Part shown: in pieces, positions 3,987 to 53,612 of the stretch
Layout of the letters: each line of letters begins with the position of its first letter
How positions within the stretch are numbered: the first letter of the stretch is position 1
Virus record (IMG/VR): IMGVR_UViG_3300044638_007100
Direction: 5' to 3' (one strand)
DNA length: 64,000 nt
Source of the DNA: a virus
Program-made: the position numbers and the translations under genes
Notes under the pieces: generated by a model
What the model was told of the DNA's origin: nothing
What the model saw: only the letters and a program-made list of their open reading frames with translations
Databases searched by the model: none

Positions 3987-4022
3987 ATTCAGTTTATATT
4001 TAATGACCGAACTGACGGTCGA

Positions 4023-4096
4023 TGGGTCTGGCGGGACTCGAACCCGCAACTTCCAGGTTAAAAGCCCGTTACTGCTACCAGTTGAGTTACAGACCC
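4023..4096 (-). tRNA. trnK: tRNA-Lys(UUU)
   Basis: Loop CT-TTT-AA; acceptor GGGTCTG/CAGACCC. Confidence 0.92.
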
Positions 4097-4156
4097 ATAT
4101 AATATAGGATTTCTATTTAATTGTCAAGGTTCTGGTGGTCTCTCAACCACCCTTTT

Positions 4157-5400: not shown

Positions 5401-6042
5401 TCAAACTTCTGCTAGGATCAGTCGGTTGGCATAATTATAAGCAAAATCAGTTCTTGCTCCGTGATGACCCCAACGGATCCACTTTCTAGCAAGTCTCATA
5501 TAATCATTAATAGACTTACCAGGAGTTTTCATTTGATTCTCAATCATCTTCCAATCACCTTCGTGCAGCATATAGTCAAGTTGTGCATCCAGTGAGGAAG
5601 GATTAGCACCAATACGAGCAGCATGTCTTCCTAGTCCATAAAAACGAGGAGCATTAGTCCATTGAATAATGCCATACCCCCCACCACAGTTAGGATAGGA
5701 AGTTCTAGCACCACCTTCACAGATATTAGGAGTGAAGGTAGATTCTTGTCGGATATTGCCCATAATGGTTGCTAGGGCGTTTTTGTCACTGATTCCTCGT
5801 TTCTGTAAGAATTCCAGAGTACGGGACTCATTGGTATTACATCCTTTACAAACTAATCGTTTTACTTTAGGTTTCTCGGGAACAACCTCTTTGGTCTCTG
5901 TCTCTTGAGTAGGCGCTTCAGGAATAATCGCAAATGGCGGTTTTACTGAAGATGTTGCCATACTCGGTGCTGGCAGTGTTGCCGCTGATGTTGCAACCGC
6001 ACCTAAAAGAGCTACGGTTACATTTGTTAGGTTTTTAAGCAT
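5401..6042 (-). CDS. Cell-wall hydrolase (phage tail lysozyme-like domain) with signal-like N-terminus, 213 aa
   Basis: ALATIMGNIRQES...GYGIIQWT motif; start moved to MLKNLTN. Confidence 0.7.
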   Translation of the reverse strand: MLKNLTNVTVALLGAVATSAATLPAPSMATSSVKPPFAIIPEAPTQETETKEVVPEKPKVKRLVCKGCNTNESRTLEFLQKRGISDKNALATIMGNIRQESTFTPNICEGGARTSYPNCGGGYGIIQWTNAPRFYGLGRHAARIGANPSSLDAQLDYMLHEGDWKMIENQMKTPGKSINDYMRLARKWIRWGHHGARTDFAYNYANRLILAEV

Positions 6043-6049
6043 TAATTTT

Positions 6050-6125
6050 AATTGAATTCGGCATCCGTTTAGAAAGGGGGTACACCCAACCTCTCGGAGG
6101 GCACTTTCCACGGCTCTAAGTGTCA
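6050..6125 (-). promoter_or_regulatory. Structured 5' leader of the hydrolase gene
   Basis: Nested CCGT/ACGG, GAAAG/CTTTC, CCTC/GAGG and GGGT/ACCC pairings. Confidence 0.4.
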
Positions 6126-6172
6126 CATCAATGACTCATAGTAAAAAACCCACCATTTGAGTGGGTCTACGC

Positions 6173-6805: not shown

Positions 6806-7279
6806 TTATAATTTTCTCCAAAGTTTTCCTTCAGCAATTCTTCTTCTCAATAATCCTGCTTCTACATCACTTCCAGGATTTTTGTAAAGTTCAAGAGCAG
6901 CAGGAACTTTACCCCATTCTTTATTCTTAAGAACTCTAGTTATGGTCACATATCCTCGACTACCATAAAAATTAGCACCAAGGTTATAAGCAAAAGACAA
7001 TAAAGCACCGCGCTGATAATCATTCATCTCACTCCAATAAGGTATTTGTTTCAGTGCTGAAAGAAATTCATTTTGTATCTGCCAATCAAACAATTCATCT
7101 GCTTCTTTCTGAGTAATCTTTTCTCCTAACTTAAAAGGACTTCCATCCTTCTTACGAGTGCTTCCCCATCCTATAGTATAAGGTTTTCCTTTAGTATAAG
7201 GATCTGGATATGCTACTAATTTACATTTTTCAAATTCTTTAATGAGTTCTATTCCTTCTTTCAGAATAGAACTTTCTAC
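6806..7279 (-). CDS. GH24 lysozyme domain with no start codon, proposed -1 frameshift extension of the peptidase
   Basis: Open frame from 7288 reads VESSILKEGIELIKEFEKCKLVAYPDPYTKGKPYTIGWGST...GLLRRRIAEGKLW. The E-D-T catalytic region lies upstream of the first possible start (TTG at 7093). Confidence 0.8.
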   Translation of the reverse strand, partial: VESSILKEGIELIKEFEKCKLVAYPDPYTKGKPYTIGWGSTRKKDGSPFKLGEKITQKEADELFDWQIQNEFLSALKQIPYWSEMNDYQRGALLSFAYNLGANFYGSRGYVTITRVLKNKEWGKVPAALELYKNPGSDVEAGLLRRRIAEGKLWRKL

Positions 7280-7285
7280 TTTTTT
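7245..7285 (-). other. -1 programmed ribosomal frameshift signal
   Basis: In-phase A-AAA-AAG (7285-7279), 5-nt spacer, perfect 10-bp hairpin AGTTCTATTC/GAATAGAACT with 9-nt loop. Confidence 0.75.
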
Positions 7286-7971
7286 ACATCAAAGATTCTT
7301 CCCCATCCAGTCCTATCTTTTCCTTTCTCTAACCAACGATACATCAGATCAGACTTTTTGTAAACAGCACCTTTGCCATTTGTTGCAGGACCAGTATATC
7401 CATCATTCAGAGAACCATAAGGATCATTTACCACATAATCTTCACCCTTCTTACCGATGACTACAACCATGTGCCCACCAGAAGGAGCAGATAGAGTACC
7501 CCTGTGATAGATCCCGATAACAACAGGTCTCCCAGCAGCAAGCTCACGATCAAGATCAGCAAAAGAAAGATTATAACTAAAGTGTGACTTAACTCCATAA
7601 CCTTCCAGAACTTTTGTCTGAACGGTATGATCAGTTGTGTCACCAATTGCAAATACTTTCTGAATATAAGAATCATCACCCTTTGCTCCCTTAAGAGTCC
7701 CTGGTTTAAAGTATTCCAGACACATCGCACAAGAAGATGAATTACAGGTTCTTTGAGCATCTCTGTAATTATCTGTTTGTGGATAATAAGGAACTGCGAG
7801 AACACCAGGAACTGCTGGTTTTGTTCTGAAAATACGAACCCAGTTTGAAGTATCATCAATCAAATCTGGATTCTTATCTGCAAGATCCACTTCAAGTTGC
7901 TCTACTGCAGCAACGTGTTTTGGATTATTAGGATCGAAATGTTGAAAAAAGTTATGAAGATCAATTTTCAT
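7276..7971 (-). CDS. C39-like cysteine peptidase (endolysin-associated), 231 aa
   Basis: VPYYPQ...TCNSSSCAM, GHMVVVIG and VNDPYG motifs. Confidence 0.8.
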   Translation of the reverse strand: MKIDLHNFFQHFDPNNPKHVAAVEQLEVDLADKNPDLIDDTSNWVRIFRTKPAVPGVLAVPYYPQTDNYRDAQRTCNSSSCAMCLEYFKPGTLKGAKGDDSYIQKVFAIGDTTDHTVQTKVLEGYGVKSHFSYNLSFADLDRELAAGRPVVIGIYHRGTLSAPSGGHMVVVIGKKGEDYVVNDPYGSLNDGYTGPATNGKGAVYKKSDLMYRWLEKGKDRTGWGRIFDVKK

Positions 7972-8004: not shown

Positions 8005-8199
8005 TTAGTATTTCTCACCAATATATTCAAGAGAAAAAATATCATGCTCCTCAATTTTAGGATCTAACCATTCATTAAATTCTTGTTGAATTGAATAAGC
8101 ATTATGATATTCATGCTCCTCATGAATATCACAAAGAACATGAATACGTTCTATTGCCCAATCATGATTAATACGAAGAGTTTCAATTAAAGTTTCCAT
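8005..8199 (-). CDS. Hypothetical protein
   Basis: 64-aa ORF overlapping the upstream gene end. Confidence 0.6.
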   Translation of the reverse strand: METLIETLRINHDWAIERIHVLCDIHEEHEYHNAYSIQQEFNEWLDPKIEEHDIFSLEYIGEKY

Positions 8200-8611
8200 A
8201 GTCTTTTTTTAGATACCTGCCTAGGATATTGCTATTGTAGTATGCTGGACTACCATCGTCAAGTGCTTCCTTCAACACATTATTTAAAAAGAGTTGCTTT
8301 GTTTCTTCATAATTACAATCACCTCTTGTCTTATGAAGACTTATAATTTCTCTAGTAAAAAATTCTTTACCATATTTTTTAATATCTTCTTTAAGTTCTG
8401 GGCAAGAACCATAATACTTTTTCCAATCAGATTCTTGTTTAACTTTTCTTTTTTTTCCTGGAGGAGTTCTAAAAGACCAAAAATATTTCCTACCCCAATA
8501 CTTTCTTTGAGTCTTAGAACAAATTATTAAATATACAAATCCAAAATAGTCTTGAATATCTTCAGTTTCAAAAACTTTTCCTTTGAATCTCCAAGGATTC
8601 TCATAGCTCAT
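8183..8611 (-). CDS. GIY-YIG (Seg-like) endonuclease family protein
   Basis: GFVYLI...RKYWGRK...YYGS...E...YNSNI motifs. Confidence 0.75.
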   Translation of the reverse strand: MSYENPWRFKGKVFETEDIQDYFGFVYLIICSKTQRKYWGRKYFWSFRTPPGKKRKVKQESDWKKYYGSCPELKEDIKKYGKEFFTREIISLHKTRGDCNYEETKQLFLNNVLKEALDDGSPAYYNSNILGRYLKKDYGNFN

Positions 8612-51929: not shown

Positions 51930-53612
51930 TTATATTTTCCCACCTTTAGGTTGTGGAATTTCTAAAGAGGAAGTATCTACAGATGGTTCCATAGGTACTT
52001 CTCCACTTGCTCCTTGTTGAATATCTTGCGGTTGCTGATCTTGTGGGATTGGATTTCCCATTTCATCTACGGGGGCATTTGGATCTGGTAAAATACCTTT
52101 AGCAATTTCATCTTCAATTTGGAGATCAATTTCAATAATCTCAGAATCAGTCTGACGTAGTATTTTTTTACGAACATACTCCGTAGAATAATATTTTCCA
52201 ATAAATGGTTCTACAGTTGTTGCTAATGTTAATCTGTTTGTAAGTAGTTCTGCTTCTTTTAATTCGGCAAAATGATTATCATATAAAAAGTCATACTGAA
52301 TGTGATCACACATTTGTTCCCAATCTTTTGGGGAAACGACATTTTTTAGTAATAATTGTGTGCGTAAAATATCATTAAATAAATTTGAGAATCTTTTTCT
52401 CAATCTACCTACAAATTTCGAGAACATTAATTCATCACGAAGAATTTCTGAGGATCTTCCAAGATTAAATCCATCACCACCACCAGCAATTCTAGTTTCA
52501 GGAACTCCTAGTGCTCTGTAAAGTTTCTTTTGGAAGTATTCAATATCTGAAAGTTCTCCAAGATTTTGTCCACCTGGAAGAGTAGTGATTTCAGTACCTC
52601 TACCACCTTCACGGCGAGGAAGCCAGAAATCTTCAAGCATACTCATAAACTTTCTATCATCACGAACTTCTCCAGTGTTTGCATCGTAAACAAGTTTATT
52701 ACGATAACGACTCATCACTTCTTTGAGATATTGTTCTGCCTTTACTTTAGGAAGATTTCCAACATCAATATAAAAAATTCTTCTTTCTGGTGCTCTCGAA
52801 AGACGATAAATGACTAAAGAATCCTCAATCATACGAAGTTGATTGAGTGCCTTGATTGCTTTATGTAAATATGAAAGTATTGTACCTTTATTTCTATCTA
52901 CTAATCCTGAAGTACAATAAGTTACTGAATCTTTTGCAATTTTGACTCCTTTTTTAGATCCACCACTAATTGTTCCTGATGGAAAATTGGGAGTTGGAGT
53001 ATAAACAAAATACTCTTCTATTTCTGGAAAAGCATATTGATCTGCATCATTTCCAGATCTTAAATTTAAATTTCTATATCCTTCTAATTGATTTTCAGTC
53101 TTTTTTTCTTGACGAACATGCTTCATTTTCATTGGATCAACATATCTCAATTCCTGAATACCTGATTCTGGATTTTTTTGATCAATGACTTTTAAATAAA
53201 ATAAACGTCCATCAATGTACCAATTTCTAAAAATTTCATGGCACTTTTTATCAAAGTCCATCATTTCTTTAATATATCTAAATTCTGCTCTAATAATTTC
53301 CTTCAAACGATCACTAGCATTTAAATTAGATAATTCAATTTCTACTGGAGAATCATATAAATCACTAACTATTGCTTCATTAACAACACTTTCTATGGCA
53401 TTATCACATTCTGGGTGAAGTGCCATTTCACGATATCTTCTAATTAGATCATATTCTGTTCTATAGACTCCTTCAATATCTACATATTGGCCATAAAATC
53501 CAGATTGAATAAAATAATCAACCCCGTCCTCATTATTTGGAGGTACGGGGGAAACTATAGACTTAGATTTTTTATCATTATTTTCAATTGAAAAACCAAA
53601 AAGTTTCGCCAT
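51930..53612 (-). CDS. gp20: Portal vertex protein
   Basis: RAPERRIFYIDVGN and EDFWLPRREGGRGTEI motifs. Confidence 0.97.
   Translation of the reverse strand: MAKLFGFSIENNDKKSKSIVSPVPPNNEDGVDYFIQSGFYGQYVDIEGVYRTEYDLIRRYREMALHPECDNAIESVVNEAIVSDLYDSPVEIELSNLNASDRLKEIIRAEFRYIKEMMDFDKKCHEIFRNWYIDGRLFYLKVIDQKNPESGIQELRYVDPMKMKHVRQEKKTENQLEGYRNLNLRSGNDADQYAFPEIEEYFVYTPTPNFPSGTISGGSKKGVKIAKDSVTYCTSGLVDRNKGTILSYLHKAIKALNQLRMIEDSLVIYRLSRAPERRIFYIDVGNLPKVKAEQYLKEVMSRYRNKLVYDANTGEVRDDRKFMSMLEDFWLPRREGGRGTEITTLPGGQNLGELSDIEYFQKKLYRALGVPETRIAGGGDGFNLGRSSEILRDELMFSKFVGRLRKRFSNLFNDILRTQLLLKNVVSPKDWEQMCDHIQYDFLYDNHFAELKEAELLTNRLTLATTVEPFIGKYYSTEYVRKKILRQTDSEIIEIDLQIEDEIAKGILPDPNAPVDEMGNPIPQDQQPQDIQQGASGEVPMEPSVDTSSLEIPQPKGGKI

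Follow-up and report, generated by a model that had tools for sequence, protein, structure and literature searches.

In the cyanophage DNA of IMG/VR virus record IMGVR_UViG_3300044638_007100, a stretch of 64,000 nucleotides (nt) that is referred to here as the window, a lysin locus is divided between two overlapping open reading frames (ORFs), the first coding for a peptidase and the second, in the -1 frame, for a lysozyme. Judged from sequence comparisons, it is very probable that a programmed -1 ribosomal frameshift at the heptamer A_AAA_AAG, assisted by a 3' hairpin, expresses this two-domain locus of a T4-like phage. The window DNA is about 70% identical to T4-like cyanophages (Kyanoviridae), for example S-SRM01 and S-PM2, and a megablast search of the phage collection yielded no record nearly identical to it. 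The signal has a clear anatomy, it is conserved at the nucleotide level in related phages, its hairpin covaries, and both enzymes are intact. The locus consists of the following features, of which the lengths in amino acids (aa) are those of the predicted proteins.

7971..7276, minus strand: peptidase ORF in the zero frame, 231 aa, ending GAT GTA AAA AAG TAG, stop included
7285..7279, minus strand: slippery heptamer A_AAA_AAG in X_XXY_YYZ phase, which permits re-pairing of both tRNAs
7278..7276, minus strand: zero-frame stop TAG, immediately 3' of the heptamer
7291..7289, minus strand: TGA closing the -1 frame upstream
6806..7279, minus strand: continuation in the -1 frame, a GH24 (T4/P22-type) lysozyme, 157 codons, stop included
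7245..7273, minus strand: hairpin with 5' arm 7273..7263, loop 7262..7256 and 3' arm 7255..7245
7304..7300, minus strand: GGGGA, 14 nt 5' of the heptamer
7822..7971, minus strand: N-terminal module of the peptidase, about 50 aa, three helices in the AlphaFold2 (AF2) model, similar to positions 2408-2557 of locus L004

The -1 frame is open from 7288, three codons before the zero-frame stop, to its own stop at 6808..6806. The overlap of the ORFs is short, with the zero-frame stop right after the site and the -1 frame leading into a long ORF, and the relatives are organized alike. Because the TGA at 7291..7289 closes the -1 frame, a productive shift is confined to the heptamer; a -1-frame stop is present at the corresponding position in most of the heptamer-bearing relatives listed. 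In the lysozyme frame, the first ATG, GTG or TTG is a TTG at 7093, far past the catalytic EFE...PD...TIGWG region. The heptamer, its phase, GGGGA, the opening of the -1 frame and a complete GH24 lysozyme devoid of a start had been noticed in an original prediction made by a model from the letters of the sequence, and all of them were confirmed on the minus strand. The products predicted here are also those expected then, a peptidase of 231 aa and a fusion of 388 aa with the junction ...IFDVKK-VESSILK....

The peptidase matches Pfam family PF13529 (Peptidase_C39_2) over the entire profile (positions 1-143 of 143; E = 1e-13, 52.5 bits with a cut-off of 24), and 73 homologues with identities of 34-60% all share residues Q65, C76, H167 and D183. 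Its AF2 model, with a predicted local distance difference test score (pLDDT) of 91.4, has a papain-like fold. The best PDB match of the model in Foldseek was 3erv, a C39-like peptidase from Bacillus (E = 1.6e-5), and further matches were the glutathione-cleaving Alr0975, peptidase domains of the PCAT and ComA transporters and the pseudomurein endoisopeptidase PeiR. When the PDB was searched with the peptidase sequence, no match was obtained; at the sequence level, solved relatives exist for the lysozyme half alone. The peptidase also matches phrog_10051, 'endolysin', and the domain is annotated 'endolysin' in many myo-, sipho- and podophages of Synechococcus. A role as a peptidase acting on the stem peptides or cross-links of peptidoglycan is likely. 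The lysozyme matches PF00959 (Phage_lysozyme), again over the entire profile (positions 1-125 of 125; E = 1.2e-19, 71.3 bits with a cut-off of 22.3), and, searched as a family profile, solved GH24 lysozymes in the PDB with E values down to 3.6e-14. Its catalytic motif, EFE...YPD...YTIGWG, contains the Glu...Asp...Thr arrangement (E-x-D-x-T) of the T4/P22 type. In all 67 complete relatives of the frameshift class (67/67), the -1 ORF is intact, extends 157-173 codons from the slip site and retains the catalytic motif, and an excess of third-position changes in the lysozyme ORF of the relatives indicates purifying selection. The peptidase corresponds to positions 1-235 and the lysozyme to positions 243-404 of phrog_3617 (405 positions), and since both halves match this single profile, fused homologues exist. 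Domain packing was modelled by AF2 with the in-frame fusion L105 (alignment of 15 sequences), but the model was too poor (pLDDT 56) and was not used.

Related loci, about 190 altogether, were gathered by three scans of IMG/VR and from GenBank records and were classified by a script. The following architectures were distinguished.

Split, lysozyme in the -1 frame, in-phase A_AAA_AAG: 94 loci, 70 distinct
Split, -1 frame, A_AAA_AAG, plus GTG at the stop: 3 loci, 3 distinct
Split, -1 frame, A_AAA_AAG, plus ATG at the stop (S-SRM01): 1 locus, 1 distinct
Split, -1 frame, T_TTT_TTT (S-CAM7 lineage): 3 loci, 3 distinct
Split, -1 frame, without heptamer, ATG/GTG overlapping the stop: 34 loci, 23 distinct
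In-frame fusion without heptamer: 22 loci, 16 distinct
In-frame fusion with an A7G run: 5 loci, 2 distinct
In-frame fusion retaining A_AAA_AAG: 6 loci, 5 distinct
Separate genes: 4 loci, 4 distinct
Reversed-order fusion (S-CREM1): 1 locus, 1 distinct

The split loci with A_AAA_AAG (94 + 3 + 1) comprise 74 distinct sequences and include the isolate S-PM2. Among the roughly 190 loci, every split locus with overlapping ORFs had a heptamer, a start codon at the stop, or both. L151 reads GCA GCA AAG at the position of the heptamer. The A-run is missing from S-CAM7 and two metagenomic relatives, in which GTT TTT TTT occurs four codons earlier and the lysozyme is again in the -1 frame. In L105-L109, A7 replaces A6, the two halves are in frame, and the encoded ...FDVKKVE... 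is the junction predicted for the shift. In-frame fusions without the heptamer read ...FDAKVE..., and by this comparison the frameshift form resembles an ancestral AAA expanded by two A. The ACG-2014f-type phages (L006, L087-L090) and an unrelated contig, L110, are in-frame fusions in which A_AAA_AAG is followed 5-6 nt later by a hairpin. Their -1 frame reads AAA AAA GTC TGA (KKV-stop), which is suggestive of a shift that would yield the peptidase alone, as in E. coli dnaX. A single base separates these loci of flipped polarity from frameshift variants ending AAG TCT TGA, and diversity within each group is low.

Two further observations concern other architectures. In S-CREM1 (L003 1438-2619) there is one ORF of 394 aa with the opposite order, lysozyme first and then peptidase. 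Of the 23 distinct loci in which ATG or GTG overlaps the peptidase stop, about 20 (L050, L122 and others) code for a longer, ATGA-coupled lysozyme, and those inspected have a conserved N-terminal extension of about 50 aa (MSIKFIDAV...HQ..AW.FLQ...EF.R.YR). Homology of this extension to the N-terminal module of the peptidase is not claimed, the hhalign match being weak (probability 10%, E = 0.003).

Constraint at the slip site was counted over 69 distinct heptamer loci. The zero-frame stop follows the heptamer directly in 60 of them and after one codon in the other nine. The codon preceding the site is GTA (33), GCA (31), ACA (3) or ATA (2); four different amino acids (V, A, T or I) are specified, and the final base is always A. 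The two lysines of the site are AAA-AAG without exception. Elsewhere in these ORFs, 76 Lys-Lys pairs are encoded by AAG-AAG (31), AAG-AAA (27), AAA-AAG (12, 16%) and AAA-AAA (6), and synonymous sites of the flanking codons are free to vary. Between the upstream stop in the -1 frame and the catalytic Glu, no ATG, GTG or TTG occurs in 40 of the 69 sequences; some relatives have an in-frame TTG or GTG within the linker. Linker length differs by up to 16 codons, and the -1 relation is kept throughout. The GGGGA sequence had been proposed to act as an upstream Shine-Dalgarno stimulator. Its position is correct, but a stimulatory role finds no support: the sequence is the product of Trp-Gly-Arg codons, and 48% of frameshift loci have A or G as the third base of the Gly codon, compared with 62% of others, so that no selection beyond the codons is apparent.

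The A_AAA_AAG heptamer in phase is unremarkable by itself, with eight such sites, including the one in the lysin locus, in the ORFs of the window. The other seven are situated in long ORFs on the minus strand near positions 53105, 46767, 23453, 21046, 20932, 19310 and 2664. The case is built on the combination of signals and on their conservation and not on the heptamer as such.

The hairpin, predicted originally as a perfect stem of 10 bp five nucleotides after the heptamer, was found at this place with 10 Watson-Crick pairs and one additional U-G pair, giving an 11-bp stem with a 7-nt loop and a 5-nt spacer. Its free energy (dG) is -12.6 kcal/mol (z = -3.95), and one of 200 shuffled sequences folds equally well. 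For comparison, the best hairpin beginning within 10 nt of the heptamer was determined in 67 distinct heptamer loci. The median dG of -13.5 kcal/mol for the heptamer loci compares with -7.5 for the other architectures and -6.8 for dinucleotide-shuffled sequences. Among the fifteen strongest hairpins of the other architectures are those of L087, L090, L108, L109 and L110, which are in frame and have kept the heptamer or A7. In S-SRM01, where the lysozyme has its own ATG, no hairpin is predicted (z = +0.94). In the S-CAM7 lineage, an 8-bp hairpin (GTAGAACC/GGTTCTAC) begins 5 nt 3' of T_TTT_TTT. The hairpin is not terminator-like, and searches of Rfam gave neither a matching family nor a match to a frameshift element.

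The stems belong to at least three unrelated sequence families. Since these pair in different registers, one common alignment of the hairpins was discarded and the analysis was performed family by family, with sliding of the partner arm as control for pairing. The results are given as the proportion of alignment cells that are paired.

AGTTCTAYTCC/GGARTAGAACT (window, S-PM2): 96.8% of cells paired, 31-52% when slid, 3 pairs doubly compensated
TCRACAYCACA/TGTGGTGTYGA: 92.0% of cells paired, 30-52% when slid, 5 pairs doubly compensated
GCCAACYAAY/RTTRGTTGGC: 98.6% of cells paired, 1-49% when slid, 3 pairs doubly compensated

Even considering the kinship of the sequences, three distinct stems predicted at one position are hard to explain otherwise. 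In every case the 3' arm falls on the first conserved codons of the lysozyme (G-[IV]-E-L), and the 5' arm belongs to the linker, which is variable.

An outer helix was also predicted by RNAfold in the window, in which 9 bp (UCUUUGAUG/CAUUAAAGA) are formed between 7287-7295 and 7236-7244 on the minus strand and the slip site is placed in an internal loop. The extended fold of 65 nt has a dG of -18.3 kcal/mol (z = -4.3); both outer arms lie within conserved codons (IFD and LIKE).

A programmed -1 frameshift, as read from the locus by the original prediction, gains support from the invariance of the heptamer, the covariation of the hairpin, the alternation of heptamer and start codon among split loci and the in-frame variants that encode the junction. 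According to this model, most ribosomes would translate the peptidase ORF and terminate at TAG, giving the 231-aa papain-like cysteine peptidase with its N-terminal helical module. Some ribosomes would stall with tRNA-Lys on AAA in the P site and on AAG in the A site, because the 11-bp hairpin 5 nt downstream would occupy the mRNA entry channel. Both tRNAs could then re-pair one base back on A-AAA-AAG, and translation would go on in the -1 frame to produce the 388-aa peptidase-lysozyme fusion with the junction ...FDVKK-VESS.... Without a start codon before the catalytic Glu of the lysozyme, the muramidase in the window phage can exist only as a fusion. That ribosomes do the slipping, and with what efficiency, is inferred, as is a role of both proteins in lysing the host. 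The window also contains a gene for tRNA-Lys(UUU) at 4021-4097 on the minus strand, part of an array of 24 tRNA genes, and no gene for tRNA-Lys(CUU) within its 64,000 nt. From work with E. coli, the presence of tRNA-Lys(UUU) without tRNA-Lys(CUU) fits slippage from AAG to AAA, and the phage tRNA-Lys(UUU) could favor such re-pairing at the slip site.

An identical fusion (...KKVE...) would arise if RNA polymerase added one A within A6, or one U within the U8 of S-CAM7, to generate a minority of in-frame mRNAs. The T8 run of S-CAM7, a length at which slippage of bacterial RNA polymerase becomes plausible, and the natural occurrence of A7 variants in DNA agree with transcriptional slippage. However, A6 is short for efficient slippage of RNA polymerase. 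Position 7 is an invariant G and the phase is constrained to xxA, both of which are characteristic of tRNA re-pairing, and a co-varying hairpin 5 nt downstream is typical of ribosomal shifting. RNA polymerase needs none of these last three features to slip, and this explanation is regarded as improbable. Still less probable is that the lysozyme is made independently, by reinitiation after TAG or from a near-cognate start such as the ATT of L-I-K, with heptamer and hairpin being incidental or used otherwise. An ATH Ile codon is indeed preceded, at 8-9 nt, by AAGGA or AAGGAG (Lys-Gly codons) in the window and in the stem family related to it, some relatives contain the in-frame TTG or GTG in the linker mentioned above, and short free-standing lysozymes occur in other phages (S-SRM01, L053/L066/L075). 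But the Shine-Dalgarno-like motif is not present in the other two stem families, and a start at the Ile of L-I-K would leave three residues before the catalytic Glu, compared with 12-13 in the natural free-standing forms. The original prediction had named initiation of the lysozyme at a non-canonical codon near 7270 as a finding that would refute it; when start codons near the junction were looked for, ATG, GTG and TTG were absent before the catalytic Glu in the 40 sequences described above. Where a real start is located at the stop, the heptamer is dispensable, as seen in the 23 distinct loci without it (for example L151), and S-SRM01 has no hairpin. Furthermore, independent synthesis leaves the xxA and AAA-AAG constraints and the covariation unexplained.

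The third possibility is that one ORF was split by a homopolymer sequencing error or that the lysozyme is a dying pseudogene. An A6 run is a classic site of indel errors, and a few contigs do have A7. The A6G split, however, recurs in independently assembled metagenomes, at about 100 loci, and in the isolate S-PM2, and an analogous T8 split is present in the isolate S-CAM7, so that two isolate lineages carry the split besides the contigs. Decay is contradicted by the intact -1 ORF with its catalytic residues in 67/67 relatives, by purifying selection and by linker indels that always keep the -1 relation. On comparison of these sequences, artefact and pseudogene are effectively excluded. The relatives also answer the question raised with the original prediction, whether heptamer and hairpin would be missing from them: the signals are kept, compensatory changes are present, and in-frame fusions exist.

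Several points nevertheless speak against a programmed ribosomal frameshift or limit what can be concluded about it. As far as the 64-kb window is concerned, in-phase A_AAA_AAG is not avoided in other genes; avoidance might be expected of a heptamer that was very slippery by itself. Because the 3' arm of the hairpin is located in conserved codons and only the 5' arm varies, conservation of pairing is partly conservation of coding. The sequences compared share kinship, so that the statistics overstate their independence. To our knowledge, frameshifting on A_AAA_AAG has not been measured in Synechococcus. Finally, the relatives tolerate very different stoichiometries, with domains that are fused outright, encoded by separate genes or reversed in order. 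Such a range of architectures argues against a narrow optimum of the product ratio and weakens the case for a precise ratio as the selected trait; the set ratio of the original prediction thus finds no support.

A broader interpretation, which is possible but somewhat doubtful, would consider the peptidase-lysozyme junction an evolvable expression switch and not one fixed frameshift, with a need for the N-terminal module underlying it. Heptamer and hairpin are found in both polarities, single indels (TCT TGA/TCT GA, A6/A7) interconvert the states, and U_UUU_UUU is used in S-CAM7. Lineages gaining a start codon lose the heptamer-hairpin cassette. In DSL-LC02/03 (L004 2408-3079; L005 2151-2819), the separately encoded lysozyme starts with its own copy of the module of about 50 aa, and this copy (L004:2408-2557) is 46% identical to the module of the peptidase over 50 aa (E = 4e-14). 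The copy carried by the DSL-LC02/03 lysozyme hints that both catalytic domains need the module. Frameshifting would then allow one copy of the module to serve two enzymes, and DSL-LC02/03 would have duplicated it instead. The need is not absolute, since short free-standing lysozymes without the module are found in S-SRM01 and L053.

The surroundings of the lysin locus were also inspected. About 680 nt downstream, at 5401-6126 on the minus strand, the window codes for a second cell wall hydrolase of 241 aa, hydrophobic in its N-terminal region and with a Phage tail lysozyme domain (PF18013, E = 8.5e-19). Upstream, the second gene before the peptidase (8183-8611, minus strand) codes for a SegE-type GIY-YIG homing endonuclease (PF19835, E = 3.2e-52); an ORF of 64 aa separates the two. 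In S-CAM7 (L167 440-877), an ORF resembling the endonuclease by eye ends where the peptidase gene begins, and the annotations beside the locus name a 'homing endonuclease' in S-SRM01 and a 'GIY-YIG endonuclease' in S-CREM1. Possibly, this locus is a hotspot for homing endonucleases.

Gene callers split the lysin locus everywhere, and if the frameshift is used as proposed, the lytic enzyme of these abundant cyanophages is a 388-aa trans-frame protein. Annotation of truncated lysozymes had been anticipated in the original prediction, and GenBank lists the lysozymes of S-PM2 (S-PM2p157; L002 2457-2675) and S-CAM7 (CC030809_00215; L167 1899-2117) solely as C-terminal fragments of 72 aa, which begin at an internal ATG well past the catalytic residues. 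Both records would need a ribosomal-slippage join. Of 1763 database homologues, the 120 closest are without exception proteins of 226-237 aa that contain the peptidase only, and any names given are 'hypothetical protein' or 'YvpB'. The data suggest that cyanophage lysis involves a peptidase in excess and a bifunctional peptidase-muramidase, and they point to an N-terminal module common to both enzymes; both suggestions are testable in the cultured S-PM2/WH7803 system. With S-PM2 and S-CAM7, two cultured phages carrying the frameshift arrangement are open to testing, and we know of no frameshift that has been measured on cyanobacterial ribosomes. The loci also form a large natural series, which spans at least three families of hairpins, two heptamers and both polarities, includes fused as well as uncoupled controls, and is suited for studying the rise and decay of -1 frameshift signals.

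On the strength of the sequence comparisons, the frameshift is apparently real, widely conserved and of the classical type with A_AAA_AAG and a hairpin, in a lysin family for which neither annotation nor description of it was found. No description of the lysin frameshift was detected in the literature, but most papers in subscription journals were outside the search, and absence is not proof. The only precedent found for recoding at a lysin gene is Alteromonas virus vB_AspP-H4/4, for which a slippery sequence and a -1 frameshift were proposed at the endolysin gene (genes 39/40; PMC5658483). This phage is a podovirus, its trans-frame product is described as an internal virion protein and not a second lytic domain, and the proposal is a one-sentence prediction in a genome announcement, given without comparative or experimental support (PMC5658483). 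Homologous domains in a single ORF are found in ACG-2014f gp207, in the same order as in the window locus, and in S-CREM1 gp9, in reverse order.

Among established systems, the tail assembly chaperones of phages (lambda G/GT) likewise employ a conserved -1 shift, which yields a major protein that is short and a minor one that is long, and what divergent phages keep is the position of this frameshift rather than its sequence. The lysin locus differs in specifying a cell wall hydrolase, in its heptamers and in an extension that is a complete, independent enzyme domain. In insertion elements of the IS3 family (IS911, IS150), OrfA and OrfAB are produced from two overlapping ORFs by a -1 shift with A_AAA_AAG and a 3' structure, and, as proposed for the window, the downstream domain is made only as a trans-frame fusion. 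Unlike these transposases of mobile elements, the product here is a phage lysis enzyme, and the ORF overlap in the window is minimal (three codons). A similar signal layout is seen in E. coli dnaX, where tau and gamma are also two products with a common N-terminus obtained by means of A_AAA_AAG and a nearby 3' stem-loop. The gene family, the cyanobacterial host and the hairpin sequence are different, the window has no sign of selection for an upstream Shine-Dalgarno stimulator, which is optional for this class, and the shift in the window gives the long product. The polarity of dnaX, in which the zero frame encodes the long protein, is matched by the ACG-2014f and L110 variants of the lysin locus.

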